The notes under the pieces were generated by a model, which searched no databases, was not told the DNA's origin, and saw only the letters and a list, made by a program, of their open reading frames with translations. Shown here in pieces: positions 4,782 to 49,559 of a DNA stretch of 64,000 nucleotides. The position numbers were made by a program, and so were the translations under genes. The DNA is taken from contig CAVZOG010000004.1 of assembly GCA_963776865.1 (NCBI GenBank), positions 588,642-652,641 of the forward strand, written 5' to 3'. Numbering within the stretch: position 1 is the first letter of the stretch; every line of letters begins with the position of its first letter. This stretch comes from an uncultured Chloroflexia bacterium. GTDB lineage: Bacteria; Chloroflexota; Limnocylindria; Limnocylindrales; CSP1-4.

Positions 4782-4799
4782 ACCGCCGCATGCCGAACG

Positions 4800-5912: not shown

Positions 5913-6042
5913 CCCGCAATTCATCCCGGCACCACCCCTTACACGCACGGCCGAGTCACGGCGCCGGCCGGTGGCGAGACAGTACTCCTTCAACCGCGGG
6001 ACCCTTCCGCGGAGAGGCCCTTGAGCATTGCGTTTCGCTCGG

Positions 6043-6507: not shown

Positions 6508-6727
6508 CGAATGCTCCTATCCGTCCTGCTCCCAAACCGGCATTCTCATTTCGCTGGTGTGAGCTCCCCCTTAGCCTACGCTCGGCCGTCCACCTTTCCT
6601 CGTGAGTCGTTTCCAATCCTGTGACTCGACGCCGCTGATTTCTTGTAGGCAGCACGTCACCTCGCGAACGACGATTTCGCAGTCGACGCCATCGCTTGCG
6701 TGATGACGCGGGGCGTACGCTGATCGC

Positions 6728-9630: not shown

Positions 9631-9720
9631 CGGACGACGGGCGAACTACATAGTCCCGTCGGCGCGAAATACATGGTTTCCGGGATGATGCCCGCCCGCT
9701 CGCTCCTAGCGTCGTGTGCG

Positions 9721-10059: not shown

Positions 10060-10060
10060 G

Positions 10061-10512
10061 ATGGACCGCCCAGGACTCAGGTTTCGAAATCAGATTGGCC
10101 CGATAGCACTCGCTGTGCTCGCGACACTCATGGCCTTTCCGGCCACGGGCCTCGCAACCGCTCCCGGGCCGCCCGACGTTGAGGTCGTGCCACCGGTGGT
10201 GATCCACACCGAGCGCGGCGACGAGCCGGTGACGTTCGTGCCCGGCCAGATCACCTTCACCTTCACCGACGGCAGCACGAGCGAGTGCGTCATCGACCCG
10301 CCGTGCCGCCCAGCCCGTGCAGCGAGCTGATGACCACCCCCGGTCCGCCGGACGTCGACATCACGCCGCCCAGCCCGATCCTCGGCGAGGACGGTGGCCT
10401 GGTCGGCTTCGAACCGGGCCTGATCCTGATCACGTTCGACGACGGCAGCCAGCGCTCGTGCGTCATCGATCCGGCCCTGCCGCCGAACCCGTGCACCGAG
10501 GGCGTGCGCTGA
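10061..10512 (+). pseudogene. small secreted protein with two tandem ~50-aa Cys-containing repeats, one frameshift
   Basis: Signal peptide MDRPGLRFRNQIGPIALAVLATLMAFPATGLA. Repeat 1 is PGPPDVEVVPP..TFTDGSTSECVIDPPCRP and repeat 2 is PGPPDVDITPP..TFDDGSQRSCVIDPALPPNPC. The frame changes near 10305 (ORFs 10061-10330 and 10285-10512). Confidence 0.5.
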
Positions 10513-10557
10513 TCGGCCACGAACTATCGAAGCCACCAAGCCGTGACGCGAGAGGAG

Positions 10558-11453
10558 ATGCAGAAAATGAAGCGAATGCTGTTGACCGTGGCATTTGTCG
10601 CGGCAATTCTTGTGACTACTGCAGGCACCGCGAGTGCGATCACCTGGGGGGAGAGTGATGGTGACGGCCATCCGCACGTCGTGGCGATGGCGCTGTTCCA
10701 GAACGGACAGGGTCCTTTCCTATGCTCGGGGACCCTGCTCACTCCCGACTTGGTTCTCACCGCCGGACACTGCGCCGGCTTACCTCGATGAGAACGGCGG
10801 CCTTCACGCCAACGACGCGACCTATGTCACGAACGTTCCGGACATCGCGCCGCTGTTCGCGGAGGTGCTCGGGACCGATATACGGCGGGAACCTATTGGC
10901 TTTCTTTGAAGGCGAGTTTGTGAAGGGCGAGGCCATCCCTCATCCCGAATTCGCAGAGTTCACGGGCTATCCGGATCCCGATACGTTCGACATCGGGTTG
11001 GTGAGGCTCAACGAAGAGATCAACGTACCCGAGTACGGAGTCATGCCTGCCCTCGGACACTTCGACTTCCTCTCCACTGCCAAGGGATCGCCCGATGAGC
11101 GCACAGTCGAGGTGGTGGGCTACGGCCTGGTCGGGACCATCCCCGCGTTCTCCGACTCCTCGATCTTCGAGCGTCGGGTGGGCTACTCGACCATCATCAA
11201 CAGTCAGTCCGCCAATGTCGGGACCCAGAACTTCCTCTACACCAACAGCCCTGGAGCTGGCTCCGGATCCGGTGGTACGTGCTCCGGCGACTCCGGAGGA
11301 CCGGCATTTTGGGTCGATCCAGGATCCGGGCCGACCAACTTGATCGTCGGGGTGAACTCGTACGGGATCGCGGCACTCTGCAACGGCAATGACTACCAGC
11401 TCCGAACCGACACCTCGGTAGCACTCGACTTCGTGAACACCTATCTCCCTTAG
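10558..11453 (+). pseudogene. secreted trypsin-like serine protease (S1 family), frame interrupted as assembled
   Basis: GAGAGGA precedes ATG 10558, which gives signal peptide MQKMKRMLLTVAFVAAILVTTAGTASA. His motif LTAGHCAG is in 10543-10791. Ser motif CSGDSGGPAF is in 10722-11453. A middle piece lies in the frame of 10634-10909. There are at least 2 frame changes. Confidence 0.8.
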
Positions 11454-11532
11454 TCGCCATATCCAGGGCGCTCGACTGCTGATCACGCCCGAACCATCGA
11501 TGGGCAGCACCCATCGAGAAGAGAGAACTGAG

Positions 11533-12443
11533 ATGAACCGACTTCGAACCAGAAACTAAAGCTCACTCGAGCAGCCGCCGTAAGCGCGGTCGTCCTTTCA
11601 CTGATCGTCGCCGGCATCGCCTACGCGGCGTTTCCGACCGGCGGCGGCAACCTGCGCGCGTGCGCAAACAACTCGACCGGCGCGCTGCGCCTCCTGAATT
11701 CCGGCCAGACCTGCACCGCCAAGGAGACGGCGATCAGGATCGCCAGCGCCGATGGCACCGGCCGCGTCGCCGACTCACAGAAGCTCGACGGCAAGGACTC
11801 GGCCGCGTTCGTCCAGAACGGCGCAGTTGCGGGTGGTGCCCTCACGGGGACCTACCCCAACCCCGGAGTCGGCAACAACTCCATCTTCGGTGCCCACGTC
11901 AGCGACACAACGTTCAGCGACGGCGACATCGTGCCCAACACCGCCGGTGGCCTGCTCAAGTCGTTCCACATCCCCAATCGGCGCCATCCAGAGTTCTGAG
12001 ATCGCCGACAACACCGTCAGCGCTGCCGACATCGACGAAGCGACGCTGCGCCAGCGCTCGACGGCCACGACGCTTTCAACAAGAAGTGCGACCCGCATCC
12101 CGACAGCGGCTTCATCCCGTGCGCCTCCGTGACGTTCATCACCGGCCGCCAGATGCCGATATTCATGACCGTCGTCTACTCGATCTACCACGAGATCATC
12201 GACCAGAATTCGACATCGGGCGAATGCAAAACCAGGCTCGATGGCGTGGACCAGGGGTCCGTTCCCAGCGGAGATTTGGATCCCAGCGTAGCCATAGCTC
12301 CAGACTCGGGAGTGCCGATGGTCGACGTCGTCTCGGTATCTGCGGGTACACACACGCTCGCATTCCTTTGCAGGCAGCTCGGTCCGATGGACATCGTCTT
12401 CGGCGACATCCGCATGGCGGTGCTCGAACTGGGCATGGACTAG
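11533..12443 (+). pseudogene. N-terminally anchored/secreted protein, unknown family, frame interrupted as assembled
   Basis: ATG 11533 gives MNRLRTR. Adding one A at 11553-11555 joins it to KLKLTRAAAVSAVVLSLIVAGIAYAAFPTGGGNLRACANNSTGALRLL. Later pieces are IGAIQSSEIADNTVSAADIDEATL (frame of 11752) and 12129-12443. The long ORFs 11660-12460 and 11775-12728 look spurious. Confidence 0.45.
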
Positions 12444-13255
12444 TAATTGCCGGCAGCTAGCGGAGTCGAGCGGCCGAGGACGTATACCTCGAGCGGCGCA
12501 CTCTTGCCTTTCAGAGACAGCGTCCGCCGCTCGACCTCCAACGCCAGTAGGCCTGCGTTGGTCGCGGCCGTCTCCGTGACGAGTATTTCGCCCGCCTCTG
12601 CGGCTGATGCCAGGCGGGCAGTCGTATTCACCGTGTCGCCCATGGCAGTGAGTTCGGTGTCGGGTCCTTCGCCTACCGCGCCGACGTACGCCAGCCCCGT
12701 GTTGACCCCGACACCAACCGGCAACCACGGCGTGTCAGTCCCATGGCCGATCCGGCCGAGCAGATCCATCGCCGCATCAATGGCCCGCCGCGCGTGGCGA
12801 GGTCCGGCCATCGACGGAACGAAGATGCCAATGACCTCGTCGCCCACGAACTTGTCGACGATGGCGTCATACCGCACCAGCACATCGGTGGCCGTGTCGT
12901 AGAAGCGGCCCATCAAGCGATTGAACTCGCGTGGCCCCATGCCCTCGGCCAAGGGCGTCGAATCACGTACATCGGCGAAGAGCAGGCTGCATTCCACCTC
13001 CGCCCCACCATGGCTTCGACGCAGCTCACGGAAGCACCCAGTGCAGTACTTGGCGTTCTTTGTCCACGGACCGAGGCCCATGGCCCTCGAGGCCAACCCA
13101 CCCGGGCCGCCGAACGGTCGTGTGCACCACTTGCAGCGGGGCGGGCTGGGCAGCCTGCCCCAGAAGCGCCGCTTGCGCAGCACCGGATTGGGGTCTGTCA
13201 GGAGGGATCGCCATTCCGCTTCGCTCAACACCTGGTCGGACGACTCCGAGGCCAT
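12440..13255 (-). CDS. class III adenylate/guanylate cyclase with N-terminal Cys-rich (zinc-ribbon-like) region
   Basis: CKWC..YCTGC lies at the N-terminus. The catalytic core is ECSLLFADVRDSTPL..VDKFVGDEVIGIF..GVNTGLAYVG..TAMGDTVNTTARL. Confidence 0.8.
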   Translation of the reverse strand: MASESSDQVLSEAEWRSLLTDPNPVLRKRRFWGRLPSPPRCKWCTRPFGGPGGLASRAMGLGPWTKNAKYCTGCFRELRRSHGGAEVECSLLFADVRDSTPLAEGMGPREFNRLMGRFYDTATDVLVRYDAIVDKFVGDEVIGIFVPSMAGPRHARRAIDAAMDLLGRIGHGTDTPWLPVGVGVNTGLAYVGAVGEGPDTELTAMGDTVNTTARLASAAEAGEILVTETAATNAGLLALEVERRTLSLKGKSAPLEVYVLGRSTPLAAGNY

Positions 13256-16410: not shown

Positions 16411-18174
16411 TCAGCGCTTGCGCTCGCGCTCGCGTTCGAGGCGGACCTCCAGCTTGCGGCCCTTGATCCTCGCCGAACCGAGCGCTCGGGTGATATTTGC
16501 AGCGTCGGACGCGGAAACCTCGACCAGCGCGAAGTTGTCTGCGATCTGGATGGCTCCGATAGCAGACGCAGGCACGCCAGCCTCACCGGTGATGGCACCG
16601 ACCAGGTCGGCGGGGCGGATCCCAAGGCGTCGACCCCCGCCGACGAATAGCTTGGTCCAACGACCATCACCGTCTCGGCCGCCGCCACGCGCTCGTGGGG
16701 CCGTGCGGTTGCTCGATCTGCGCCGCGGTGCCGATTTTGCCGGTCGGTCGTTGGTCGGGCCCAGGGTCATCGGGGCGATGTCGGATAGATCCTCCTCGTC
16801 TTTCCCGGATGCCCGATCGGCAAGGCTGACCGCGGCCAGGGCAACGTCCAGGACGTCAAATTCGGATGCCAGCGGCTCGACGACCACGCGGAAGCGGTCG
16901 AGGCTGTCGTCGAGGAGCATTTCGCGCAGGTTGGCGCGCAGCATGTCCAGCCGGCGCTCGCGCAGGTCGGCCGTTGTCGGGACGTGAGCCAATTCGAGCC
17001 GCGTCTTGACTGTCCGCTCGATGTTCTTCAGGAGCCGGCTCTCGCGCGGCTCGACGAGTGTGATCGCCACGCCTTCGCGGCCGGCGCGACCGGTCCGGCC
17101 GATGCGATGGACGTACGCATCTGGATCGCTTGGCACGTCGTAGTTGACGACGTGCGAAACGTGCTCGATATCCAGCCCGCGCGCCGCTACGTCTGTCGCG
17201 ACGAGCACGTCCAGGTCTCCTTCGCGAAACCTGTTCATGACCCGATCCCGCTGGTGCTGGTCCATCCCGCCGTGGAGTGCGGCAGCGTCGTGGCCGCGGC
17301 CGGTCAACTGCTGGGCAAGCTCCTCGACCTCGCCGCGCGTGCGAGCGAAGACGAGCGCGGACGAAGGGTCCTCGACATCCAGGATCCGACCCAGCGCGGT
17401 CAGCTTGTCCGCCCGACGCACCACGTATGCGACCTGTCGGACGCGGGCGACACCGGCACCCGTCCCACGCTCGGCGTGGATCTGGACGCGTTTCGGGTCG
17501 CGCAGGTGACGCTGCGCGATCTTGGCGATCGGCCCGGCGATCGTGGCCGAGAAGAGCGCCGTCTGGCGCGTCGCCGGCGTCGCTGAAAGCAGCGTTTCGA
17601 GGTCCTCGGCGAAGCCCATGTCGAGCATCTCGTCCGCCTCGTCGAGGATGACCGTGTCGACGCCTTCGAGCTTGATGCTGCCCCGCTTCACGTGGTCCAC
17701 GGCGCGGCCGGGAGTGGCGACGACGATGTCGACGCCGCGCTCCAGCGCTCGGAGCTGCAGGCCGATGGACTGTCCGCCGTAGACGGGCAGTACGCGGACG
17801 GACATCTCCCCGGCGTACCGATGGATCGCCTCGGACACCTGCATCGCCAGCTCTCGCGTCGGCACCAGCACGAGCGCGCAGATCCGCCCGTTCGCGCGAG
17901 CCGTTTTCGTGTCCTGGTGCTTTGCGACAAGGCGATGGAGCAACGGCAACGCGAAGGCGGCAGTCTTGCCCGTGCCCGTCGGCGCCTCGGCGAGCACGTC
18001 CTGGCCGGCGATCAACGGCGGGATCGCCTCGCGCTGGATCGGTGTCGGCTCCTCGTAGCCCAGGGCCGCGAGAGTCGTCAGCAGCCGATCGTCCAACTGG
18101 AGTCGCGTGAACCCGTCGCTGGAGCCGTTTGCTTGGGTCGCGCCAGTCTGGGCGGTATCGAGCCGATCCGTCAT
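16411..18174 (-). CDS. deaD: DEAD-box RNA helicase with C-terminal DbpA-type RNA-binding domain (DeaD/CshA-like)
   Basis: Intact 587-aa ORF. Motifs seen are GYEEPTPIQ, APTGTGKT, DEAD, SAT, VATDVAARGLDI and [10 protein letters not shown]. The C-terminal KLFVGGGRRLGIRPADLVGAI..VEV is the DbpA-type domain. Confidence 0.9.
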   Translation of the reverse strand: MTDRLDTAQTGATQANGSSDGFTRLQLDDRLLTTLAALGYEEPTPIQREAIPPLIAGQDVLAEAPTGTGKTAAFALPLLHRLVAKHQDTKTARANGRICALVLVPTRELAMQVSEAIHRYAGEMSVRVLPVYGGQSIGLQLRALERGVDIVVATPGRAVDHVKRGSIKLEGVDTVILDEADEMLDMGFAEDLETLLSATPATRQTALFSATIAGPIAKIAQRHLRDPKRVQIHAERGTGAGVARVRQVAYVVRRADKLTALGRILDVEDPSSALVFARTRGEVEELAQQLTGRGHDAAALHGGMDQHQRDRVMNRFREGDLDVLVATDVAARGLDIEHVSHVVNYDVPSDPDAYVHRIGRTGRAGREGVAITLVEPRESRLLKNIERTVKTRLELAHVPTTADLRERRLDMLRANLREMLLDDSLDRFRVVVEPLASEFDVLDVALAAVSLADRASGKDEEDLSDIAPMTLGPTNDRPAKSAPRRRSSNRTAPRARGGGRDGDGRWTKLFVGGGRRLGIRPADLVGAITGEAGVPASAIGAIQIADNFALVEVSASDAANITRALGSARIKGRKLEVRLERERERKR

Positions 18175-18399
18175 TGAGCCATTGTCAGGCGTACTGGACG
18201 CGCCGCCCTAGCGTTTTGAGTGCGAGCCCGCGGCTTCGGATCGCCTCATCGAAGGCTGGAGGCCGGTGATCGCATCCTTCCTGATCCCGCAGATCAACCA
18301 GGGTGCGAAGGACTCGCTCGAGCCCTGGATCCGGGCGGCAACGACGCGATCGCCGGCTGTCGTCTCGAACCGTTCGCGAGGTGCGCTGACGGACCGCCT

Positions 18400-21913: not shown

Positions 21914-23500
21914 GTGGGAATCATCCGCGCGTCACTGATTCGCTGCCCTGATCTTGACTCTCGTCGCCCCAGCTGCGCAAGCAGCAGATCCTCTACATGT
22001 GACCTTGCCGAGTGGTCAGGCCTTGCAGGGCCTACTAGCAAGCAGTTCCTTGGAATGGCGTGGAATTCCGTACGCAGCTCCGCCGGTGGGGCCGCTTCGC
22101 TGGCGGCGTCCGCAGCCGGCGCTCCCTTGGGTAGGGACTCTCGATGCGACCGAATTCCAGGCGACCTGTTCGCAGCTCGCCTTCGATCCTGATACCGAAA
22201 CCGAGTTCGTCGACGGCAGTGAGGACTGCCTGTATCTGAACGTGTTCGCGCCAATCGACTCGGGGCCAGCGGACCTGCCGTGATGGTTCACCTGCATGGC
22301 GGCAGCAACTGGGGTTTTAGGCCGTATCGCGACGCAACCACCTTCGTAACCAAGGACGTGATCGTGGTGACGATCGGCTATCGCCTGGGCGTCTTCGGGT
22401 TTGTCGGTCATCCCGGCACTGACCGAGGAGGATGGCATAAGTTCGGGCGAATACGGCCTGCTCGACCAGATCGCGGCGCTGGAATGGGTGCGAGACAACA
22501 TCTACGGCCTTCGGTGGTGATGAGGACAACGTGACTCTCTTCGGCGAGTCAGCGGGTTCTTTCGACGGCTGCGGCGCTCGTCGTGTCACCGCTGAGCCAG
22601 GGCCTCTTCCAGAAGGCTGCGCTGCAGACCGAGTGGTACGGCGCCTCCACGGCGAGCCGATCGCTTTCTCGGAGGACATGGGTCTTGACATGTCGGCGGG
22701 CGTGGGCTGCACCGACGCGCCCGATGTCCCCGCGTGTCTGCGTGCCACGCCACGAGATGATCTCGTTTGGTCCATGGGCTTCGACGACGTCGTGCCACGC
22801 GTCGGCGGGGCCGTGTTGCCCGAATCGGTCTTTCCTGATGCTTCTGCCAGACGTGACTATCCCTCTACTGATCGGCTCGAATCGCGAGGAGTGCGTGCAC
22901 TGCCTGGGTGACCACACTTTCGGGGGTGTGCCGTACGGCAATAACTTGTACACGCGCGATACGAACTCGGTGACCGGCCCGCAGAACGGGAAAGAGATTC
23001 GGCGGTTCTATCCGAAATCCGCATTCGACTCCGCCTTGTGGGCAACCGTAGCCGCATTCACCGACGCCTCGTACACATGCCCGATGCGCCAGGTGGGGCT
23101 GGCCACGGACGCTCCTGTCTACAGGTACCTGTACACACACCGGCTCGAGAACAATGAATTCCTCAACAGCCTGCGTGCTGCTCACTTTTTGGACGAGCCG
23201 ATCCTGTGGAACGACTCGCAGTTGCTGGCAGGCTTCGGGGCTGCCGATTACGAGCGCTCTCCAGATGAGGATCTGCTGGCCCACCTCATGTCGACGTACT
23301 GGACGAACTTCGCCAAGACGGGTGACCCGAATGGTGTCGGGCTGCCAGTCTGGCCGGCTTACGTGGCTGCCACCGAAACGATCATGGAGCTCGACACCAC
23401 GCCGACTTCAATTTCGAACTGGCGAGTGGCTCAGTGCAACTTCTTCGACAGCCTTCCCGCGATCTACGCGCCACCGTGGGTATACACGCCGGCACTTTGA
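21914..23500 (+). pseudogene. type-B carboxylesterase (para-nitrobenzyl esterase-like), many frame changes
   Basis: GAGGGA precedes GTG 21914. The signal ends ..ALILTLVAPAAQA. Motifs seen are EWRGIPYAAPPVGPLRW, EDCLYLNVF, VMVHLHGG, active site LFGESAGS, and a C-terminal YWTNFAKTGDPN. The pieces are in 21954-22283, 22280-22534, 22531-22911 and 22583-23500. Confidence 0.8.
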
Positions 23501-26722: not shown

Positions 26723-28092
26723 GTGGCGACCACCATCGCCATCGTCGGCGGCGGTGCGTCGGGCACGATCAGCGCCATCTCGCTGTTGCGCCACCCATCG
26801 CCAGAGCCCAGGCGCGTCGTCGTCATTGAACCGTCAACGCGTCTGGGCGCCGGAGTGGCGTACGGCACCCAATCCGAAGCTCACCTGCTCAACGTCCGTG
26901 CCAGCGGTATGAGCGCACTTGCCGACGATCCCAGCCACTTCCTCGCCTGGGGGCGGGAGTGGGGGATCGCGGCCACCGGGGCGGAGTTCGTGCCGCGCCT
27001 TCACTACGGCCGGTACCTGCGCGACACCCTGGCCACGGCCGAGGCCTACGCTCCGGCGAGCTCCAAGTTTGCGCACCGACCACGCGCCGTCACCGCAATT
27101 CGGCCGACTGTCCCCGGTTCGGACAGCTTCACGCTGTTGCTCGACGACGACACCGAGCTGTCAGCGGATCACGTCGTCCTCGCCACGGGCAACCATTTCT
27201 CGGCGCCGGCGTGGCTGCCGCGGCACCCGTGCGTTGTCGCCGATCCGTGGCAGCCCGGCGCGGTCGAGGCGCTCAGCGGCGCCGGCAGTGTGCTGGTCAT
27301 CGGGACCGGCCTGACGGCAGTCGATGTCGTCCTGACCCTGCGCGACTCCGGCTTTCAGCGGCACGGCGCACCTCGTTTCGAGCCACGGCCTGTTTCCAGC
27401 CACTCACCGTGAAGGGGCGCCTCGTGCCCAGGCGCGCCCGCCGGCGATCAACGCTGGCTACGCGGCTGCCCGCACGGCGCGCGGCCTCGTGCGTGCGCTG
27501 CGTGCGGACGCGCAGCGTGCCGACGACTGGCGTGAATCGGTCGATTCGATCCGTCCCGTGACCACCGATCTGTGGCGTGGACTGCCGCGCGACGAACAGC
27601 AGCGTGCCCTGCGCCACGCCGCGCGTCATTGGGAAGTCAGGCGGCATCGAATGGCGCCGCAGGTCGCCGTCGCGCTCGAGAAGCTCCGCCACGCCGGACG
27701 GCTGACCGCCGAAAAGGGTCGCGTGGTCGACATCGAGCCAATCGGGACCGTGCTTCGCGTGACCTCGGTCCATGGCGGCATCCAGTCGATCCGCGAGGTG
27801 GACGCGGTGATCAGCTGCGTCGGCCCGACCGCTGATCCGAGGCAGACATCCGCTGCTTGCCGGACTGATCGAGGCCGGCAGCGCAACCCGTCATCCGCTC
27901 GGCCTGGGTCTCGACGTGGAGACCGACGGTCGAATTCGGAGACCTGACGGATCGGCCTGGAACACCTTCTGGTCGGTCGGCCCGCTGCGCAAGGGCGCCG
28001 ACTGGGAGTCGACTGCCATTCCGGAGATCCGGCGCCAGGCCCGCGATCTCGCCGCTTCCCTTCTCGAAACCCCCGACCACTCACTCAACTAG
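26723..28092 (+). pseudogene. FAD/NAD(P)-binding oxidoreductase (FAD-NAD(P)-binding domain family), frame interrupted
   Basis: GTG 26723 abuts the rhodanese stop. The dinucleotide fold is IAIVGGGASGTISAISLL. There is a second GXG, VLVIGTGLTAVDVVL. The body continues in 27489-27947 and a third frame, to TAG 28090-28092. Confidence 0.65.
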
Positions 28093-28108: not shown

Positions 28109-29504
28109 ATGGACATTGAGACGTTTCTGACGCCGGGGCTCGGCGACTCGACCTACCTCGTCGCGTCGGAAGGGGAGGCGGCGCTGATCGACCCGCAGCG
28201 CGATGCGTGGCGGTTCATCGAGGCCGCCGAGCGCTGGGGCTGGCGGATCACCCATGTGCTCGAGACGCACGTGCACAACGACTACGTGAGCGGCGCCCAG
28301 GAAGTGCGTGCCGCGACCGGCGCGGAGATCGTCGCGCCCGCACGCGGCGGCTACGAGTTCCCGTGGCGCGCCGCGGACGAGGGCTTCTCGGTTCCGATCG
28401 GCGACCTCGAACCTGGTCGGCATGGCGACGCCGGGCCATACGCCCGAGCACCTCGCGTGGCAGATCGTGCCCAGTGGGTCGGACGTGCCGGCGGCCGTGC
28501 TGACCGGTGGCAGCCTGCTGGTCGGCAGCGCCGGCCGGCCGGATCTGCTCGGCGCCGCCAAGATGCCCGCCCTCGCCGGGGAGCAGTTCCGGTCGCTCCA
28601 GCGCCTCGCTGCGCTGCCCGACGACGTGCGCATCCTGCCCACCCACGGCGCCGGATCGTTCTGCGTGTCTGGCGCGGGAGGAACGGAACGCGAGTCGACG
28701 GTTGGGCTCGAGCGCGAGCTGAACCCGTACCTGCAGGTGCCCGACAGCCACTCGTTCCTTCGCCTCGTCGAGCAGCGCCTGGGCCGCTATCCCTCGTACT
28801 ACAACCACGTGGGCGACATCAACCGCCACGGGCCGCTGCTGGGCGATCGCAAGTTCGCGCCGCCCAGGCTGACGCCCGACAAGCTGGTCCAGCTGGTCGA
28901 GGGCGGCGCCCGGGTTGTCGACGCGCGCGATCGATACAGCTTCGCCCGCGGCCACGTCCCCGGTGCGGTCCACGTCGAGCCGACCGACCAGTTCGGGAGC
29001 TGGGTCGGGATCGTGGTGCCGTTCAACGCGCCGATCGTGCTGATGGTCGACACGACCGACGCCACGCTCGTGCCCGAGCTCGTCGTCCAGCTGTGGCGGA
29101 TCGGCTACGAGCGCGTCATCGGCTACGTCTCCGGCGGCATCGCCCCGTGGCTCGAGGCCGGCCGCAGCGAGGTGCGCCACGAGACGCTGTCGAGCGAGCA
29201 GCTCGCTTTGGAGCTTGCCGCCGGCGACGGCCGCGCGATCATCGACGTCCGCCAGCCGACCGAGTGGCGCGAGGGCACGATCCCCGGCTCGCGCATGATC
29301 TTCGCCGGCGACGTCCGCGACGCCGTCGCCGACCTGCCCCGCGACCGAACCTGGACGCTCATCTGTAGAACCGGCGCCCGCGCCTCAATCGCCGCGAGCG
29401 TCCTCATGCGCGCCGGCCACCGCGCCCGCGTCGTCACCGAAGGCGGCGTCCCCGACATCCTCGCCTCCGCCTCGACCGCATCAACCCGTCAGGAAGCGGC
29501 GTAA
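28109..29504 (+). pseudogene. metallo-beta-lactamase-fold persulfide-dioxygenase-like enzyme fused to two rhodanese domains, one frameshift
   Basis: AAGGAG precedes ATG 28109. THVHNDYVSG is the HxHxDH-type motif. Deleting one C at 28412-28413 restores GDLELVGMATPGHTPEH. The rhodanese domains in 28308-29504 include the loop LICRTGARASIAA. Confidence 0.8.
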
Positions 29505-29735
29505 CCGGCGTGCTGACTTGACTAAGAGAACGGCTTGGCGCTGCGTTGTACGGGCTTACACGGGCCCCACGCCGGACTGATCGAAAGAGAACAGTGTGAG
29601 CCCCTGATGACGTAGGCTTGACGCTCACCTTGGTTCCCGATGAAAACTCGGGTGGTCCGACCCATCCGATGCCACTAGCAGCGTCGGCAGCACCAGATCT
29701 TGAAATCCAGAGCCGCCAATTGGCACCTCGCCCTG

Positions 29736-30188
29736 CTACGACACGCCACCTGAGGGCACGATGACTGGCTGCCGGCCGAACTCAATCAAGACAAGTGCCT
29801 CGAGCAACTTCATCTGCTGCACAGAGAACGGCGAAGCGGTCACCAGACCAGGCATCAACGTGAACCCACCTTCCGGGATTGACAACGACCATCGGCGCTG
29901 GATTGTCGCAATGAAGGCCACGCCTACGTCACGGCTTACCGCTAGTTCCAGCATCATGTCCGCGTCACTCGCGCCGGATGCTCCGCTAACCAGAAGCTGT
30001 GACGCGTGAGGCTTTGCCTCAGCCACAAACACAACAGGGCTCTTAATCGCCACGATGTCTGGGGCCTTCCATCTCCCGGTCGACGACCTGAAGCCAACCG
30101 CGACTTGCGTCGGACGAGCAAGCAGTACCCGCCAACTATTCGACCGCAGCCATTGCGCCGCCCAACTCACCAAGTCCCCCTCTGACAC
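29736..30188 (-). CDS. 150-aa PD-(D/E)xK (restriction-endonuclease-like) protein
   Basis: GTG 30188 lies 5 nt after the stop of the 411-aa ORF. The core is ..GRWKAPDIVAIKSPVVFVAEAKPH (D ... E-x-K on consecutive strands) after an N-terminal helix. The sequence context is low-GC. Confidence 0.55.
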   Translation of the reverse strand: MSEGDLVSWAAQWLRSNSWRVLLARPTQVAVGFRSSTGRWKAPDIVAIKSPVVFVAEAKPHASQLLVSGASGASDADMMLELAVSRDVGVAFIATIQRRWSLSIPEGGFTLMPGLVTASPFSVQQMKLLEALVLIEFGRQPVIVPSGGVS

Positions 30189-30193
30189 GTGGG

Positions 30194-31429
30194 TCAGAAA
30201 AACACCACACCATCACGAAACACAATCAGGTCGGCTGCAAACGAGTACAGCCGCACAAAGTTTTTCATTACCTGTGCGAGGCCGCCTCCTAGATGCAGAG
30301 TGTATGTGGGGATTCGGGTCCGAATGTCAGCGAAGTTTGTAGCTTGGAGCGGCGAGCGCTCCCAAGCGTCGCGTACATACTGAGCGAAGTCGGCAAAGTA
30401 CAAGAGCCCTAGGTCTATCACAAGATTGGCGTCGCGTTGCTCAGGCGTTGGACCCGTGCGACAGAAAAGGTAGTCGAAGACCAAAGGCTGCTGCGTGTAT
30501 GGGTCACCTCCCTTCCGGGCGATGCGATCGCGCAGAGTCGCCCTAGCTGCATTGACGGCTCCGGCATCATCAAGGTCGACTAGGACCGGTGTAAACACGA
30601 TGTTGCGGTCCCGTTTTACGATGCGGTCCGGAATCTTGGGCGGTAGTTGCAAACCTCGAGCACCGAGCAAGGCAAGAAGTTCAGCGTGTGTAAGTGGCCG
30701 ACCCGCTGGCATTCGATGCGTAAGCCGCTGAAAATCGCCGATCGCCGGAATTTGACGGTAGGCAACCTGACGCAAGTCATTCCGTAAGTCGACGATCATG
30801 CGTTCCGTCATTAAGTCGCGAAGGCTAAGGCCCTTCACGGCTGCATCGAGCACCATGTCGAAGAATGCGATAGTCCGGGCGATGCTGGGTGCATCGTGCG
30901 GCGGCAGGTCGCCGTAAGTAGCGTCGCCGTCCAAGCTGGCTCCGTCCGTTGACGGCCATTCTGCAATGTAGATTGGTGTTTGATGAATCTCGACCACTCG
31001 ATCGTACGCGAAAAAGAAGAATGGATCCGTGCGACCAGCAAAAGGTCTGCGGGCGGGCATGTCCCGCGGTGCTACGAATGCGCCGGGTATTCCCTCTTGT
31101 GCGCAACCAACGAGATTCGGAAAGCGCTGGATCCAGTGGTCACGCGCCGCGACGTGCTCGGTGACGTCTAGAGCAAAGATTGGTCGTATTGGTCGTCGGC
31201 CGTCGTCCACCGTCACTACGAGATCTGGCTTTGCGAAGAAGAGCAGACGACGGAGGCTTTCCGGTAGCTCGGCAAAGGCTGCGTGGCTGTTTTGTTGCGG
31301 TAGCGTGCCAACGTCCACGGTTACGACACCAGCCGTCTCAAGATCTCGAAGCGATGTGTACGCCGAATGTAGTCCCGCCCAAGCCCGTTCGCGGTGGTGA
31401 AGCAGCTGCACGCCGATCGGCGTGGTCAC
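30194..31429 (-). CDS. 411-aa protein of unknown family, candidate restriction/specificity component
   Basis: Intact ORF. Its GTG overlaps the M2 stop (GTGA at 31426-31429). I saw no ATPase, HNH, GIY-YIG or PLD motif. The only nuclease-like stretch is KPDLVVTVDD..FALDVTEH. Confidence 0.6.
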   Translation of the reverse strand: MTTPIGVQLLHHRERAWAGLHSAYTSLRDLETAGVVTVDVGTLPQQNSHAAFAELPESLRRLLFFAKPDLVVTVDDGRRPIRPIFALDVTEHVAARDHWIQRFPNLVGCAQEGIPGAFVAPRDMPARRPFAGRTDPFFFFAYDRVVEIHQTPIYIAEWPSTDGASLDGDATYGDLPPHDAPSIARTIAFFDMVLDAAVKGLSLRDLMTERMIVDLRNDLRQVAYRQIPAIGDFQRLTHRMPAGRPLTHAELLALLGARGLQLPPKIPDRIVKRDRNIVFTPVLVDLDDAGAVNAARATLRDRIARKGGDPYTQQPLVFDYLFCRTGPTPEQRDANLVIDLGLLYFADFAQYVRDAWERSPLQATNFADIRTRIPTYTLHLGGGLAQVMKNFVRLYSFAADLIVFRDGVVFF

Positions 31430-32642
31430 GGCTTTCTGAGCACCGTCACAGTGTCGTGGCCAATCAAGCCGGCCGTCGAGTGACGAGTCAACTTCAGACG
31501 TTGCCGGAATAACTCGTAGCTAAACGTCAAGGAGACCGAGGCGCCTCGGTCGGTGGCCATACCTACAAGCCGGCCCGAAGTATCTAGTGATACTCCCTTG
31601 ACGCGGTTCGTTCCACATACAAGTACCACATGTCCACCTGGCCGAACAGCGTCCAACATCGCGCCGATAGCAGTATTCATCTGCGTGAAGTACTTGTAGA
31701 CAATGTACGCACGCTTTGGTTCACCTGCGTGTACAGACTCAATCGCTGCGTTCAGATATGCAGCGGATGACCAACTGGCTGGAACACTGTGCACGTCGCG
31801 ATAATCCTGTGCGGACACCCGCTCACTACCGTAGTAAGTTCGTTCGTGTGAATGCATGTCCGCAGGAGGAATCGAACCTAATAGCAGCATTTCGTAACGA
31901 GTAGTCATCGGATAATTCATTGCGTTGATGTAGGGCGGTGACGTAACAATAAGATCAGCCCGTCCCAAGCCTACCCAGTCCATAATTCTGTCGGCCGAAC
32001 CTTGGACAACGGATGCGGTTACATCGTCGGGAAGGCGAGCCAAGGTATGCGCCAGGCGTTCCGTCGCCTTTGGGAGACGCCTCGCCAGGACCTTGGCTGG
32101 GCTGGGGGTTCCTTGGGCGACCTTGACCGGATCACGCTTCACCTTCAACGACCTTCATCCTGGTAGGAGAATGTCCGGATGGCTCCGGCGAGCACGCTCT
32201 TGAAAAACGGCTGCATCTCGATGGGCAAGTCGGTTTCAATAAACGCCCGCAACCGGGCAAACTCAGTCAGATGCCGCGTGTCAAACCAAAAGTCATCGAG
32301 GGCGAAAGTCATTCGTCGAGCGCGAGGAAGTGTATGAGGTCTGCGACAGACTTCGACGAGTGAGGACATGGCGCGCCACAGCAGTTCTTGCCTAACCTTG
32401 GTTGTCTTGGCGGTTGTTAGCAGGCAGGCATACGGGTTGACGTCCATGGCGAGAGTGTTTCTACCTGCAAGCATTGCCTCCAGAGCAGTCGTGCCCGAGC
32501 CAGAGAACGGATCTACCACAAGTGATGCTGGGGTGGAGTACGTTGAGATGGCCCATGCTGGCACGTCCGGAATGAACTTCGATGGAAAGGCAGCGATGGA
32601 ATGGGCTCCTCGGTTGCCATCGTTCGTGCTGGCCAAGGCCAC
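31426..32642 (-). pseudogene. N4/N6 DNA methyltransferase M2, one frameshift
   Basis: 32145-32642 carries FPSKFIPDVP..VVDPFSGSGTT (motif I). 31426-32148 carries DLIVTSPPY (motif IV) and LDAVRPGGHVVLV. Adding one A at 32147-32148 joins ..SYQDEGR to LKVKRDP. Confidence 0.8.
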
Positions 32643-32744
32643 AATCGATCCATTGGATTTGGCTGCGACAGGGATGGATACGGGCGCTAACGACGAGGTT
32701 GGGCGAGCTTCCAGGCGAAGAGCAGCTCCAGCGCGTGCGCGGGT

Positions 32745-33923
32745 CGCTTCGAAGACGAGGACACGCTGCTTTTTGGTGATAGCCGGCCGACCTCCGGCGA
32801 CGGCACGAGTGTCGCGGAACGACCGGCTGATTGACGACAGGTCATAGCTGATTTCGCCGACGAATCGCCAATCAGCTAACGCGCGAGGTCAACGTACAAC
32901 TCGCTCATATCCACGCGGCGACCCTCGAGAATGGAGTCGCCGGCGAACATGTATGCCAATTTGCTGGGCTTGAGAGTGCGGCCCGAAGCGCACCATTACG
33001 GGAGTCATGCGTCGAATGAACACGTCGACCGGCGCCTTTCGGCTCGAATGCTCGTATCGGGAGCCGATCTCGTCGGTCCTCACCTTGTCGAGATCGTATC
33101 CGAGCCAAGCCGCTCGTAGACGGTGGTAGAGGTAATAGTCGAAGCTGTTCGGATATGGTGGGGACGTGACAATGAGATCAACTGAGTCATCGGGTAAGTC
33201 AAGCTCTGACACTCGATCGGTCGAGTCGAAAATGATTTTCGCGAGCTGGCGGCCTTGCAGATCCTGCCGAAGTGACGCCATGCTCGAGACCGCAGCAGTC
33301 AACCGGCGCTTGAAACGACCCAGCGCATAGCCGTCAGGTAGGTTCTTATTGGTGGCTACATAGCGGGTTTCGCTGTCCTGATTGCTGACACTTGTGATCA
33401 CGGAGCTGAGAACGCACTCCAAGAAAACACGTGCCCGAATGTCATCGCAATCACGGATGCGAGCTAGCAGCCAAGCGAGCTCTTTCGACATGTTCGGCTG
33501 AAACCAATGACCCAAGCGATCCAAGGTAGGCAACGGCAGGTCAGGTAGTGACGCCGCATCAGCGTTGCCTATTTCCTCAAGCATGGCGACGACGGCCTCG
33601 AGGCCGTCGTCGCTCAGGGGCGTCGTCTTGGCGCGGCTGATTAGCGTCGCGATCGGATTGGAGTCGACGCCAATGCTTCGGCGGCCTTGGAGTGACGCCT
33701 CGACTAGCGTAGTGCCACTGCCACAGAACGGATCCAGAACGAGATGGCGCTCGTTCGTGTGCTCCTTGATGACATCACGTGGCAGATCGGGAATGAATTT
33801 GGCCGGGTACGGGTGCAGTCTGTGGATCGGGTGAGCGTCCGTTCCGGCCTCACCGACCCTGTAACGAAGCAGTCGGTTCAGCAGGCTGTCGCGAGCCGGC
33901 GCGCTTTTGCGTGGAGTATGCAA
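32745..33923 (-). pseudogene. N4/N6 DNA methyltransferase M1 (paralog of M2), two compensating frameshifts, 3' end uncertain
   Basis: TTG 33923 with GAGG upstream. Motifs seen are HPYPAKFIPDLP..LDPFCGSGTT and DLIVTSPPY. Homopolymer repairs at 32982-32984 and 32878-32879 restore GRTLKPSKLAYMFAGDS..DLARLADWRFVGE..KKQRVLVFE. The called ORF is 32889-33923. Confidence 0.8.
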
Positions 33924-33955
33924 CTCAGCCTCTGGCTGGACCCGATCCGAGAAGG

Positions 33956-37203
<3,248 letters not shown>

Positions 37204-40081: not shown

Positions 40082-43000
40082 TCAGCCAGCCGAATTCGGC
40101 GGTCCGGACGTGCCGGCCTGAGCGGCGGCGGCCATCGCTTCCCGCCCGCGGCGCTCGACGAGCTCGATGAGCGGTGAAGTCGGGCCTTGGCGTTCCACGC
40201 TCCCGTGCGCCCGTGCGAGCCACTCGGCGCCCTCGGCGGTGCGACCGCGGCGGAGCAGGAACTCGGCCATCGCCAGCTCCTCCTCCCACGGGTTGAAGTC
40301 GGTCCTGGTTATCACCTCGATCGCCTCGCGGAGCAGCTTCTCGGCCTCCTCGTAGCTGCCCTGTGCCTCGCGCACCCGCCCTATCACCATGCCCGTCGAC
40401 GCGACCGTGGCAAGGTCGTCCTTGCCCGTCAGCCGCGCCGCTTCCTCGGCGTACTCGGCCGCCGCAGCCACGTCGCCTTTCATCAACAGGAGCTGCGCAA
40501 CACGCCGCTGGACCTCGGGCAGGTAGCCGATGTGTTCACGCACCAGATCGAGGGCGTGGTCGTAGTGGGACATCGCCTCGTCGAGCTGGTCTTTGCGCCG
40601 CGCCAGGTCGCCCAGGAACTGGTAGCAGGCAGATGCCTCCTCGCGATCGCCGAACTCCTCCAGGACCGCACCCGCTGCTGTGAGCTGTTCCGTCGCTTCT
40701 TCGTCTTTCCCATCGTTCAGGAGACCGATGCCATAGACCCGGCTCACACGGGCGCGCGCAAGGCGGCTGGGCCCCTGTGCGGCAAGTTCGCGCGCCTCCT
40801 CGACGAGCTTGACTCGTTCATCCCACTCACCGCGATGGCCGGCAACGCCGGCCAGGCGTGCCATCGCCTCGGCTTCGCGGCTCGACCAGCCAAGCTCGTG
40901 AGCCACGAGCCTCATCTCCGTCCATGCGCTTCGGGCAGCGTCGAGGTCGCCATGCCACCAGCCGCCCCAGCCTCTCAGCTCGAGCGCCGCAACCAGGTCG
41001 TGCTTGTCGTTCGCCTCTGTCAGCAGCGTGATGGCGCGCTCGACCTCCGCCAGGGCCACCTCTGCGTCCGACGATTCGAGCCGCAGCCAGATGTCGCCGG
41101 CCTTGATCAGGATCGCCTGACCCTCGATGTCCTTGCGGCCTGCTGCTCGCGCTTCCTGCTCCACCTCGATGGCGACCTCGCCGGCCAGCCGGTATTCGCT
41201 CAGCCGCCACAGCGCATCGGCCAGCAGCACGCGCAGCTCCAGCCGCGCGTCACCGGGTGGCGGCTCGAGCGCGAGGGCTCGGTCGGCGAATGTGCGTGCG
41301 GCGCGGAAGTCGTCGCGCGCCTGCGCCCGTTTGGCGGACGCTCCGAGCGAGGCCACTGCCCGGTCGCGTTCAGCGGGATCGAAGCTGCCCTCCAGCTCGT
41401 GCCGCAGCCGGACGGCCTGCTCGAGGTGGTAGGCCTCGATCTCGACGTACTCGTCGATGCGGTCGCCGAACCAGGCACGCAGCCAGTCCGCCACGCCGCG
41501 ATGCAGCTCGGCCCGGCGCGCCTTTGGCAGCGTCGCGTAGGCGACGTCGCGAATCAGGATGTGGCGGAAGCGGAAGGTTGGCTCGTCCGGGACGCGCTCG
41601 TCCGTGATCAGGTCGCGCAGGATGGCGTCCTCGAGGTGTTGCTGGAGCGGCACGGCCGTCGTCCCTGGCGCTGATCGCTGCCACGGCCGAGCGCTGGAAG
41701 ACCCGACCGACCACCGATGCCGCCTGGAGCGTCGCTCGCTCAGGGGAGGGCAGCGTGTCCAGCCGGGCGCGGATGAGTGCCTCGACACTGTCCGGGACGC
41801 GCACGTCCGCGGCCTCGGCTCGCGCCACCCACCGGTCGTCGCGCCGCTCGACCATGCCCTCCTCGATCAGCATGCGCACCACTTCCTCGACGAAGAGCGG
41901 GTTGCCCTCGGCCCGATCGAGCACGCGCTGGCGCAAGCTCGGCCGGCAGGTCGTCGACCGCCAGCAGCGAGCCGAGCAGGGAGCGCGACTCCTCCTCGGT
42001 CAGTGGCTCGAGGTGGATGCGGCTCGCTTCCATGCGGCCCGATCCCCACGCCGGACGCGATGTCGAGCAGCTCGGCTCGCGACGAGCAGATGACCAGCAG
42101 CGGTGCGTCGCGCGTCCATGTCACGACGTACTCGATCAGGTCGAGCAGCGGCGGCTCGGCCCAGTGGATGTCCTCGAAAACGAGCAGCAAGCGGGCCCCG
42201 CTCGCCGATCACGTGCTCGACCAAGACGCCGGAATCCCCAGGCGATCTCGCGGTCGGCGCCCTCGACCGCTGCCTGCGAAGCGTCGGCCGCGCCGATGAT
42301 GCGGCGAGAGGCGGTCGGCAACATCGGCATCGGGGCTCACCGCGTCGAGTCGGGCGCGAGACTCCTCGGCCGTCGCCTCGGCGCCGATGCTCGGCGAGCT
42401 CGCGCACCATCTCGGCGATCGGCCAGTAGGTGATCCCGTCGCCGTAGGGCAGGCAACGGCCCTTGACGACCGACCAGCCGTCGACGGCCATCCGAGAGGT
42501 TGCCTCACGGACCAGCCGACTCTTGCCCACGCCGGGCACGCCGAGCACGGTGAACAGGGCCGCTTTGCTGCCACTCTGCGCGCGGCGGGCCGAGTCGAGC
42601 AGCATCTGCAGCTCTTCGCCGCGTCCGGTGAGAGGAGCCTCCAGTCCGGGGACGCCGCGCGGGCGGCCAACCTCGGTCGACGACCGAGGTGATGCGCCAA
42701 CCTTCGATGGCGGCCTCGTGGCCGCGCAGGGCCAGCTCGCCGAGCGGCGTGGCGGCGATCACGTCGCGGACCTGGTCATAGGCCGCGGCACCGACCACCA
42801 CATCGCCCGGTTCGGCCTGCTGCTCGAGCCGCGCGGCGAGGTTCATCGCGTCTCCGGTGGCCATCGTGGCGCCACCGAACGGGTCGCCGACGACGACCTC
42901 GCCCGACTCGATCCCGATGCGCGCCTGAACCATCTAGTCCGTGGCGTTCCAGCGCGGCGCCGGCGAGCGCGGCCAGCCCGTCGCGGATTGCCAGCGCCGC

Positions 43001-47385: not shown

Positions 47386-48621
47386 CTAGGCGAGCGCGCC
47401 GACCGGTTGGCCGATTGCCGCGGAGCCCGCGCCGAGGCTCGCCCCGAGCAGCAGCGGACGGCCGAGGCGGTTGTGATACTGCGGCCGGAAGCGGTCGATG
47501 TCGTACATCGTCTCGACATCGACCTTGCGCGAGTTGCCGGGTTCGGGGATCGGCACGTGGGCGTACTTGCCGTCCTGGATGGCGATCATCCGCCCGGTGA
47601 TGCCGCCGTCGCGAATGAGGTCGACGGCGATGTTGGCGAAGGTGATCGCGACCATCTGGTCGAGCGAGTCGGCCTCGCCCGAGCGGAGGTCGTACGTCAG
47701 CTCGGAGTTGACTGCCTCTTCACCAGATCGTGCCTTGATCTCCTGCGCGAGGGCCGATCCGATGTCCTGCTTGTGGCGGTGGCCGTAGGCATCTGCCTCG
47801 CCGATCTCGGCCAGCGCTCCGCCGCTCCAGATCGCGCCCTCTGACGAGATCACGAACGAGTAACGCGACGGATTGAGGCGCTTGTCCTCGACGAGCACGT
47901 CGACCAGCCGATCGAGGTCGAATGGCGCTTCCGGAATGACGCAGCGTGCCGACGTCACGTACGAGGTGTACAGCGCGGTGAAGCCGCAGTCGCGGCCAAA
48001 GATGCGGAACACGCCGATGCGCTCGTGCGAGCCGAGCGTCGTGCGCTGACGGGTGATGAGCTCCTTGGCCCGAGTGACGGCCGATGAGAAACCGATGCAG
48101 TACTCGGTTCCCTCGACGTCGTTGTCCATCGTCTTGGGGATGGCGATGAGCGGCACGCCGTGGCGGTCGAGCACCTTCGAGTAGGACAGTGTGTCGTCGC
48201 CGCCGATGGTGACCAGGTAGTCGAGGCCGAGATACTCGATGTTGTCGAGCACGATCGGCGTCAGGTCGTACAGGCCGTCGGCGGTCTCATAGCGCGCCGC
48301 ATCGTCGGCGACGTGTGCCGGCAGCCGGCTGGCCTTGGTCTTGGTCGGGTTGGTGCGCGAGGTGTGGAGCACTGTGCCGCCGGTTCGGTCGATCGCGCGC
48401 GTGTTCACCCGATCCAGGGGTCGGATGTAGTCGGCGTCCAGTCGGCCGCCCGCGCTGAGCGCCTTCGCGCGGCGCATGTGGGTCAGACCTTCCCAGCCGC
48501 GGCGAATGCCGATCACCTCGCAGCCCAGCTCGGTCGCGTTGTAGACGACGCTCTTGATGACCGAGTTCAGGCCGGGGACGTCGCCACCGCCGGTGAGGAT
48601 GCCGATTCGTCGTGCTCGCAC
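47386..48621 (-). CDS. pfkA: 6-phosphofructokinase, PfkA family (sequence signature of PPi-dependent type)
   Basis: Intact 411-aa ORF. Motifs seen are RIGILTGGGDVPGLN, TIGGDDT and IPKTMDND. Confidence 0.85.
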   Translation of the reverse strand: MRARRIGILTGGGDVPGLNSVIKSVVYNATELGCEVIGIRRGWEGLTHMRRAKALSAGGRLDADYIRPLDRVNTRAIDRTGGTVLHTSRTNPTKTKASRLPAHVADDAARYETADGLYDLTPIVLDNIEYLGLDYLVTIGGDDTLSYSKVLDRHGVPLIAIPKTMDNDVEGTEYCIGFSSAVTRAKELITRQRTTLGSHERIGVFRIFGRDCGFTALYTSYVTSARCVIPEAPFDLDRLVDVLVEDKRLNPSRYSFVISSEGAIWSGGALAEIGEADAYGHRHKQDIGSALAQEIKARSGEEAVNSELTYDLRSGEADSLDQMVAITFANIAVDLIRDGGITGRMIAIQDGKYAHVPIPEPGNSRKVDVETMYDIDRFRPQYHNRLGRPLLLGASLGAGSAAIGQPVGALA

Positions 48622-48644
48622 GTTCAGATTTCCCTTGAGATGGC

Positions 48645-49559
48645 TCAGAGCCCGCTATAGGTATGAAGGCCGCTGAAGATCAGGTTGCCGCCGAGGAAGG
48701 TGAACATCACCGCCGCGAAGCCGATGACCAGGATCAGCGCGGCGGGTCTGCCTGCCCAGCCGCGCTGGCTGCGCGCGTGGAGGTAGACAGCGTAGATCAG
48801 CCACGTTACGAGGGCCGATGTTTCCTTTGGATCCCAGCCCCAGTAGCGGCCCCACGCGATCGACGCCCACCACGAGCCGAGGATGATCAACGTCGCGAAG
48901 ATGGGGAAGCCGATGATCACCGCCCGATACGCGACCTCGTCGAGCACCTTCGCCGGCGGCAGCCACGAGACGCGGTTCTCCTTGCCCTGGATGAGGTAGC
49001 CCACGGCCGCGGCGAAGCTGACCGCCAGCACCCCGTAGCTGATCACCGCCATGGCGACGTGGATCGTCAGCAGCGGCGGATTGTCGAGCGCGGGAACGAG
49101 CGGGCTGATCGCCTGCGGCAGGGTGAACGCGTAGGCGGTCAGGAAGAAGGCGACGCCGATGGGCAGGAACGCGACCGACTTGAGCGGGTAGCGCCGGCCG
49201 AGATAGAGGTACGAGGCGATGATGCCGAAGGCGAACGCGACGCTGAACTCGTACAGGTTGCCCCACGGGCCGCGGCCGACCAGAAAGGCACGCACCAGCA
49301 GGCCGACGGCGATGAACACCACCGCGGCCCAGGTGAACGCCTGGCCGATCGAGCCGGCCGTGGTGTTGACGTTGCCGTTGCTCGGCGCGTTGCCGGTCAC
49401 GGTGACCGTGGTCGAGCCGCCTCCGGCTCCGGCCGCCACCGCGGTCATCGTCGCGCGGCGACCCATCGCCAGCAGCGTCGTGTGGATGACGAACAACAGG
49501 AAAGCGATCGCCAGGGTGACGGTTCCGATATCGATCGCGTAGTAGGACAGCTTTGCCAA
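48645..49559 (-). CDS. ccsA: cytochrome c biogenesis protein CcsA/ResC
   Basis: The Trp-rich haem-handling motif WGRYWGWDPKETSALVTWL and several TM helices are present. TTG 49559 avoids overlap with the upstream gene, whereas the ORF extends to 49640. Confidence 0.85.
   Translation of the reverse strand: MAKLSYYAIDIGTVTLAIAFLLFVIHTTLLAMGRRATMTAVAAGAGGGSTTVTVTGNAPSNGNVNTTAGSIGQAFTWAAVVFIAVGLLVRAFLVGRGPWGNLYEFSVAFAFGIIASYLYLGRRYPLKSVAFLPIGVAFFLTAYAFTLPQAISPLVPALDNPPLLTIHVAMAVISYGVLAVSFAAAVGYLIQGKENRVSWLPPAKVLDEVAYRAVIIGFPIFATLIILGSWWASIAWGRYWGWDPKETSALVTWLIYAVYLHARSQRGWAGRPAALILVIGFAAVMFTFLGGNLIFSGLHTYSGL

Follow-up and report, generated by a model that had tools for sequence, protein, structure and literature searches.

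What kind of enzyme is encoded by two adjacent genes that share no name with any described family and lie directly downstream of methyltransferase sequence in an uncultured Chloroflexia bacterium? The genes, coding for proteins of 411 and 150 amino acids (aa), stand in a 64,000-nucleotide (nt) stretch of contig CAVZOG010000004.1 (the window, by which we mean that whole stretch). An earlier note, made from the letters of the window without database searches, had paired them as effectors, with the larger as a scaffold or specificity protein and the smaller as a minimal nuclease, and could not place the arrangement in any described restriction-modification (R-M) subtype. Both open reading frames (ORFs) lie where that note had put them, and the peptide strings that it quoted are present in the translations of the ORF list. 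Our analysis indicates that the pair is probably a heterodimeric Type IIS/IIT restriction endonuclease of the BsrDI/BtsI kind, which is the "Class III" of Chan et al. This assignment is based on the order and conservation of the genes, the invariance of the catalytic motifs, the predicted folds, homology to a family with the motif PD-X13-E-X12-QRFAR, and a natural fusion of the two proteins.

We begin with the larger protein (the large subunit hereafter). Searches of Pfam and NCBIfam gave no significant family for it, in agreement with the statement of the earlier note that it contains no recognizable Walker, HNH, GIY-YIG, phospholipase D (PLD), or helicase domain, and a sequence search of the Protein Data Bank (PDB) gave nothing significant. 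It has 66 clusters of homologues, all labeled "hypothetical" and mostly of ~405 aa, which were recovered with E values down to 1e-177. Because of these homologues, and because the family of the smaller protein is conserved from Bacteria to Archaea (see below), both ORFs are real genes rather than chance ORFs. In an alignment of 53 members of the large-subunit family, residues P68, D69, H92, D97, W99, Q101, R102, and F103 are invariant, and position 88 is acidic throughout, being Glu in 31 members and Asp in the other 22, among them the window protein. The motif as a whole reads PD-X18-(D/E)-X12-QR, and three further conserved motifs, DPYxxQ, FDYxFCR, and KNFxR, are found in the C-terminal part. 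The strings KPDLVVTVDD and FALDVTEH, both confirmed in the translation, belong to this motif. The earlier note had set them down as merely nuclease-like and short of a Lys, but they correspond to the published active-site motif PD-Xn-E-X12-QR, with its PD and QR invariant. This motif is the noncanonical bottom-strand site (Cb) that Xu et al. 2007 (PMC1950550) proved by alanine mutants at D83/E99/Q112-R113 of BsrDI-B and D58/E72/Q85-R86 of BtsI-B, and the E-X12-QR spacing of the family studied here is identical to that of both proteins. The published record is divided as to which subunit carries which motif, since the abstract of PMC1950550 and PMC3017599 state the reverse of the Results of PMC1950550; the mutants [B]-Q112A/R113A and [A]-E82A/K84A described in those Results place the QR site on the large subunit, and the present family agrees with this placement.

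Profile comparisons connect the large subunit to a wider set of proteins with the same motif. The PADLOC model PDLC03392 ("Type II nicking endonuclease"), whose composition is unstated, is matched over the motif region by 52 of the 53 family members, with values of 6e-8 at best and 0.005 for the window protein itself, and no other restriction endonuclease model is matched by these members. A profile search of 1.84 billion representative proteins reached 158 proteins, many of which are 312-335 aa in length and display PD-X13-E-X12-QRFAR, that is, the length and the spacing of BtsI-B. Alignment of the large-subunit family by hhalign with one such uncharacterized BtsI-B-like family (A4) gave a probability of 99.8 and an E value of 6e-30; PD, E, and QR align with their counterparts, and a C-terminal DPYxGQ...DYxxCR motif is common to the two. 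The cluster names of ten remote relatives are without exception "hypothetical protein," and phmmer searches of the PDB with the remote relatives P0190 and P0194 found nothing.

The AlphaFold2 model of the large subunit has a predicted local distance difference test score (pLDDT) of 95.1 and a predicted template modeling score (pTM) of 0.91, and its strand 70-75, strand 82-89, and helix 96-111 are positioned as a QR-type motif requires. A Foldseek search of the PDB with this model gave four matches below 1e-3, all of them to BsmI (9ez5, 9ezd, 9f38, and 9ez7; E values of 1e-7 to 4e-7; probability, 1.0), with the next match only at an E value of 0.07. The four entries are BsmI-DNA complexes released in 2025 (PMC11889245). 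The large subunit is predicted to have a Cb~TRD architecture, with an N-terminal EcoRI-like nuclease domain followed by a recognition or central region.

The smaller protein (the small subunit) proved harder to reach by sequence: Pfam and NCBIfam contain no significant family for it, a PDB sequence search returned nothing significant, and a single-sequence database search gave zero matches, failing to recover even the query. A family profile was instead built from the translations of genes neighboring homologues of the large subunit, and the small proteins thus collected are 17-34% identical to that of the window. In the family alignments A2 and A3, residues E3, K41, P43, D44, E57, K59, and D75 are invariant. 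The helix DLVSWAAQWLRSN (residues 5-17) and the strings APDIVAIK and VVFVAEAKP, on which the earlier note had rested its identification, were likewise confirmed in the translation. The AlphaFold2 model (pLDDT, 86.8; pTM, 0.85) has the alpha-beta-beta-beta-alpha-beta core of the PD-(D/E)xK fold, and its best Foldseek matches are all PD-(D/E)xK nucleases, namely, R2 restriction-like endonuclease domains, 3fov, the BspD6I small subunit (2p14), McrC, and Hjc. With the invariant D44-X12-E57-x-K59 and the fold model, the identification of this protein as a minimal PD-(D/E)xK nuclease stands. The spacing of its motif is that of BtsI-A, in which D65, E78, and K80 of the top-strand site (Ct) have been mutagenized (PMC1950550), and we predict that it is the top-strand catalytic subunit. 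Weak matches to the Hjc model of Pfam occur in seven of nine members; however, these are below threshold and the gene is strictly linked to an R-M operon, and an Hjc-type resolvase was rejected. NERD was likewise rejected as a meaningful name for the protein.

Gene neighborhoods were compared across 14 foreign loci, which derive from Xanthomonas melonis, a second Xanthomonas-like assembly, a Lachnospiraceae, three Oscillospiraceae, Christensenella, Flavobacterium, a Bathyarchaeote, and five metagenome contigs. Genomic co-occurrence of the homologues, a check that the earlier note had proposed, is complete: counting the window, a small gene (~150-175 aa) directly follows the large gene (398-411 aa) in all 15 loci, and across these the stops and starts of the two genes overlap or closely abut. 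Immediately upstream of the large gene, 13 of the 14 foreign loci encode a fused protein of 820-868 aa with two N6_N4 methyltransferase domains, and this methyltransferase (M) gene is intact in 13 of the 15 loci when the window is included. Xanthomonas melonis NCPPB 3434 and Christensenella sp. Marseille-P2438 are among the carriers of an intact operon. Moreover, two contigs encode a natural in-frame fusion of large and small subunits in a single protein of 576 aa (metagenome proteins P0071 and P0263; hhalign probability, 99.0; E value, 2.8e-18), which repeats the Cb~TRD~Ct order of monomeric BsmI and BsrI. Given the adjacency in 15 of 15 loci and the natural fusion, the pairing of the two proteins, as had been proposed, is well supported, as is their role as the functional effector pair of an R-M system.

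Two variations on this layout were observed. At L014:5001-7589, tandem BtsI-B-like large paralogues of 330 and 346 aa, each with PD-X13-E-X12-QRFAR, are followed by a single 166-aa gene resembling the small subunit, whose product aligns to the small-subunit profile with a probability of 83 and an E value of 9e-6; the neighboring genes have no recognizable methyltransferase Pfam domain. In the three Oscillospiraceae loci (L001, L002, and L013; ~3500-12900), the triad of methyltransferase, large-subunit, and small-subunit genes (M-RL-RS) lies within an apparent integrative mobilizable element that also carries a Mob_Pre relaxase, an HTH_17 excisionase-like gene, a DUF5906 primase-like gene, and a tyrosine integrase beside rpsI. 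Unlike these, the window cassette is without mobility genes.

How does this arrangement compare with characterized enzymes? BtsI (GCAGTG 2/0) and BsrDI (GCAATG 2/0) are heterodimeric Type IIS/IIT enzymes of Class III (PMC1950550; Chan et al. 2011, PMC3017599), and the window system shares with them a large subunit with an N-terminal PD-Xn-E-X12-QR and a recognition region, a small subunit of ~150-220 aa with PD-Xn-ExK, two amino-methyltransferase activities, and, as in BsrDI, adjacent subunit genes. The earlier view that the arrangement lies outside the described R-M subtypes thus gives way to a placement in Class III/Type IIT (PMC3017599). The new family nonetheless forms a remote, separate clade without a Pfam or NCBIfam model; the first spacer of its QR-type motif is X18, where these two enzymes have X13-15; its large subunits are 398-411 aa in length versus 328 aa in BtsI-B and ~56 kDa in BsrDI-B; and a single fused M1~M2 gene opens a tightly coupled M-RL-RS operon, in contrast to the order M1-S-M2-L of the BtsI genes, among which the R genes are divergent. 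A second point of comparison is provided by the monomeric Type IIS enzymes BsmI, Mva1269I, and BsrI, which have two different catalytic sites (BsmI 9ez5 and 9f38; PMC11889245). As in BsmI, an N-terminal EcoRI-like domain with PD-Xn-E-Xm-QR, which makes the bottom-strand cut in that enzyme, precedes a central recognition domain, but the two sites reside there on one chain of 676 aa and here on two proteins.

The earlier note had further named, as the result that would speak against its proposal, that the 411-aa protein be matched with confidence to an established type II/IIS family possessing its own catalytic site, and such a match is what we found. Its picture of an inert 411-aa scaffold accompanied by a sole 150-aa nuclease, amounting to an undescribed R-M subtype, draws on the lack of any Pfam or NCBIfam domain in the large protein, the absence of the canonical ExK lysine from it (D88-V-T90), and the complete E...PD...ExK site of the small protein. 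Against it, the invariant PD...(D/E)-X12-QR matches an active site proven by mutagenesis, the nicking-endonuclease model is matched by nearly all members over exactly that stretch, BsmI is the sole significant structural match, and a lone 150-aa monomer with one site would be unable to cut both strands without a second site. As the arrangement is, moreover, already described, we consider a noncatalytic scaffold very improbable. Just as improbable is a heterodimer of the BspD6I/BstNBI type (GAGTC 4/6; 186-aa small subunit), in which the large subunit combines FokI-like recognition and catalytic domains and the small subunit is a duplicate of that catalytic domain. The gene layout is indeed the same, with a large gene and then a small one of ~150-190 aa, and the small-subunit model weakly resembles both ss.BspD6I (2p14; E value, 0.018) and the Nt.BspD6I catalytic domain (5liq; E value, 0.06). 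However, the large-subunit model matches BsmI and neither Nt.BspD6I nor FokI, its catalytic motif is a QR-type one near the N terminus rather than a canonical PD-ExK at the C terminus, and the large and small subunits have no mutual similarity here, in contrast to BspD6I, where the canonical catalytic domain at the C terminus of the FokI-like large subunit is a homologue of the small subunit. The BspD6I-type architecture was consequently rejected, although a functional analogy may hold, with a large subunit that would recognize and nick and a small PD-(D/E)xK subunit that would be active only in the complex.

Several observations weigh against the assignment to the BsrDI/BtsI kind. The spacer between the Asp and the second acidic residue is X18 in the window protein, one to five residues longer than the published X13-17, and the second acidic position is there occupied by Asp instead of Glu, as it is in 22 of the 53 members. 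The Foldseek TMq to BsmI is just 0.46-0.48, and the match is hence partial or domain-wise. At the sequence level, HMMER detects no similarity to BsmI, profile-to-PDB searches with A1 and A4 failing to reach it. No solved structure matches the small-subunit model at an E value of <=0.001, and the FokI-like C-terminal domain of BsmI is absent from the top 50 Foldseek matches of that model. The family link rests on the motif, its spacing, the PADLOC model of unstated composition, and the structure of BsmI. Finally, the M gene of the window is broken beside intact R genes, a state that one would not expect of an active R-M system and the reverse of the usual order of decay.

If the pair is indeed a Class III heterodimer, a mechanism can be proposed in which the large subunit would bind an asymmetric DNA sequence via the region beyond its nuclease domain. 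In its nuclease site, Gln and Arg on the following helix would replace the usual Lys, and if it behaves as Nb.BsrDI and Nb.BtsI do, the large subunit would by itself nick one strand beside the site. The small subunit, as a bare PD-X12-ExK nuclease without a DNA-recognition module, would be inactive alone; it may dock on the DNA-bound large subunit and cut the other strand, so that the DNA would be broken across both strands near the site. Of the two amino-methyltransferases joined in the M1~M2 protein, each would modify one strand of the asymmetric site. The nicking and cleavage behavior, the strand assignment, and the asymmetry of the site are what we infer from the characterized enzymes. The positions of the genes, motifs, and lesions are collected in Table 1.

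Table 1. Positions in the window of the R-M cassette, its predicted catalytic motifs, and the lesions of its methyltransferase gene
Feature	Position	Strand	Description and source
Low-GC island	29550-33950 (roughly)		Contains only the operon M1~M2 -> large -> small; composition, ORFs
Small-subunit gene	29736-30188	minus	150 aa, GTG start; ORF list
Canonical catalytic motif, small subunit	30012-30062	minus	P43-D44-X12-E57-A-K59 (PDIVAIKSPVVFVAEAK); translation
Large-subunit gene	30194-31429	minus	411 aa, GTG start; ORF list
Predicted bottom-strand catalytic motif, large subunit	31124-31228	minus	P68-D69-X18-D88-X12-Q101-R102 (PDLVVTVDDGRRPIRPIFALDVTEHVAARDHWIQR); translation
Fused M1~M2 methyltransferase gene	31426-33923	minus	Pfam and PADLOC methyltransferase matches; tblastn with orthologue
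Lesion 3, -1 frameshift in M2	near 32147-32150	minus	CGTTGA at 32145-32150; between FxGxG and SPPY halves
Lesion 2, -1 deletion in M1	near 32879-32886	minus	GCGCG
Out-of-frame M1 segment	32879-32987	minus	RTLKPSKLAYMFAGDS...SELYVDLA in another frame; three-frame translation versus orthologue
Premature stop in M1	32889-32891	minus	Between the two M1 indels
Lesion 1, +1 insertion in M1	near 32980-32987	minus	TTCGGGCC

We then considered the state of the system in this genome. A tblastn search with the intact 833-aa orthologue of Xanthomonas melonis covers 33911-31435 of the window in two frames. The gene that it matches encodes two N6_N4 domains, each with FxGxG ... SPPY; thus, the two methyltransferases that had been counted upstream are present as domains, but they belong to one fused M1~M2 gene, which three indels split into the ORFs 32889-33923 (344 aa), 32145-32642 (165 aa), and 31426-32148 (240 aa). 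These indels deprive M1 of its C-terminal portion and break M2 between the halves that carry FxGxG and SPPY. In contrast, neither R gene is interrupted and every catalytic residue is retained, and the large subunit shows 5 changes at conserved positions versus a family mean of 4.0. The start of the large-subunit gene overlaps the stop of the M gene (GTGA at 31426-31429), and a gap of 5 nt separates the large- and small-subunit ORFs; stops and starts that overlap or abut couple the translation of the three genes. With three indels that disrupt the frame of its M gene, the system is probably inactive in this genome or in decay.

A second case of R genes without M was observed in a metagenome contig of a high-GC host (L017:5858-7696), where the large (407 aa) and small (~151 aa) genes are intact, only the last ~44 codons of M are left, and a large gene with DEAD, Helicase_C, and MZB domains on the opposite strand abuts the M remnant. 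Elsewhere in the window, genes on the plus strand are also split across frames, namely, a carboxylesterase-like gene (21954-23500), a flavin adenine dinucleotide (FAD)-oxidoreductase-like gene (26723-27947), and a gene for a metallo-beta-lactamase (MBL)-fold/rhodanese protein (28109-29504). Uninterrupted genes of up to 1.8 kb are found as well (e.g., 16414-18207, 40085-41866, and 47389-48654), and the broken genes carry three to four lesions each. Apparent in-frame stops at 9628 and 47386 were examined as possible nonsense mutations and rejected, as they are ordinary gene boundaries.

Are the lesions of the M gene real? One account, to which we give about even chances, takes the indels as genuine and the cassette as a decaying relic, in which the R genes would be unexpressed, coupling or polarity having been lost after premature termination of M, and would have yet to accumulate lesions of their own. 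In its favor, three independent indels occur within 2.5 kb of M, the neighbors (nrdZ-like, esterase, oxidoreductase, and MBL/rhodanese genes) are multiply broken while genes of up to 1.8 kb elsewhere are intact, and the overlap of the R-large start with the M stop would offer a means of silencing; at the lesion density of M (~1.2 per kb), 1.7 kb would remain intact by chance with a P of ~0.13, and the metagenome locus that lost nearly all of M likewise keeps both R ORFs. What speaks against a relic is that decay of R-M systems normally hits R first, as a cell with an active R does not survive the loss of M, that the large subunit has no excess of substitutions at conserved positions, and that short homopolymer runs contain or adjoin at least two of the three indels, a context of consensus errors in long reads. 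The other account, which we regard as less likely, sees in the indels nothing but errors of assembly or consensus, so that the system would be intact and active in the organism. It would explain why many window genes are frameshifted, why two of the three M indels fall in GGG/CC and TT(T) runs, and why both R genes retain their frames and all catalytic residues, and it would remove the biologically awkward coexistence of an intact R with a dead M. Yet the frameshifts are uneven, several genes of 1.2-1.8 kb being uninterrupted where others have multiple lesions, and one of the M indels lies in a GCGCG context rather than in a homopolymer. This clustering of the lesions favors genuine pseudogenes over uniform sequencing error, and their distribution suggests a high-GC genome of actinobacterial appearance that is rich in pseudogenes, as opposed to assembly error spread uniformly. 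The R genes may have stayed intact next to a dead M by chance, through silencing once translational coupling was lost, or under the protection of another methylase.

The cassette occupies an island with a GC content of 50-62%, against ~70% in the flanks, bordered by the 3' end of a broken nrdZ-like gene on one side and the 3' end of the MBL/rhodanese gene on the other. Searches for repeats, tRNAs, and ORFs revealed no integrase or tRNA in the island and no direct or inverted repeats at its ends; tRNA and Rfam searches of the window gave zero matches, and tblastn against plasmids gave no match. The gene bordering the island upstream, which encodes a class II ribonucleotide reductase of the NrdJ/NrdZ kind (33956-37203, minus strand), is fragmented into five or more ORFs that read in different frames and ends 30 nt before the start of M1~M2, and the island thus stands directly downstream of a pseudogene.

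The gain in annotation is that two families of "hypothetical proteins" receive names; a new kind of defense system is not implied. Only a few Class III heterodimeric Type IIS enzymes have been characterized, and it is from their large subunits that the strand-specific nickases on the market (Nb.BsrDI and Nb.BtsI) were obtained. Against this background, a distinct clade with a high-confidence model, a fused methylase, and probably a new specificity would be useful for enzyme discovery. We offer as speculation, and as a rather improbable whole, that this uncharacterized clade of ~66 sequence clusters may recognize a new asymmetric sequence with a large subunit that is a natural sequence-specific nicking enzyme, and that the persistence of R beside a destroyed M at two independent loci, in the window and in L017, may reflect a fail-safe in which translation of R is coupled to completion of M, so that the loss of M would silence R instead of killing the cell. 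As it offers separate-subunit and fused forms side by side, the clade may also help to explain how the small subunit of such enzymes is switched on.

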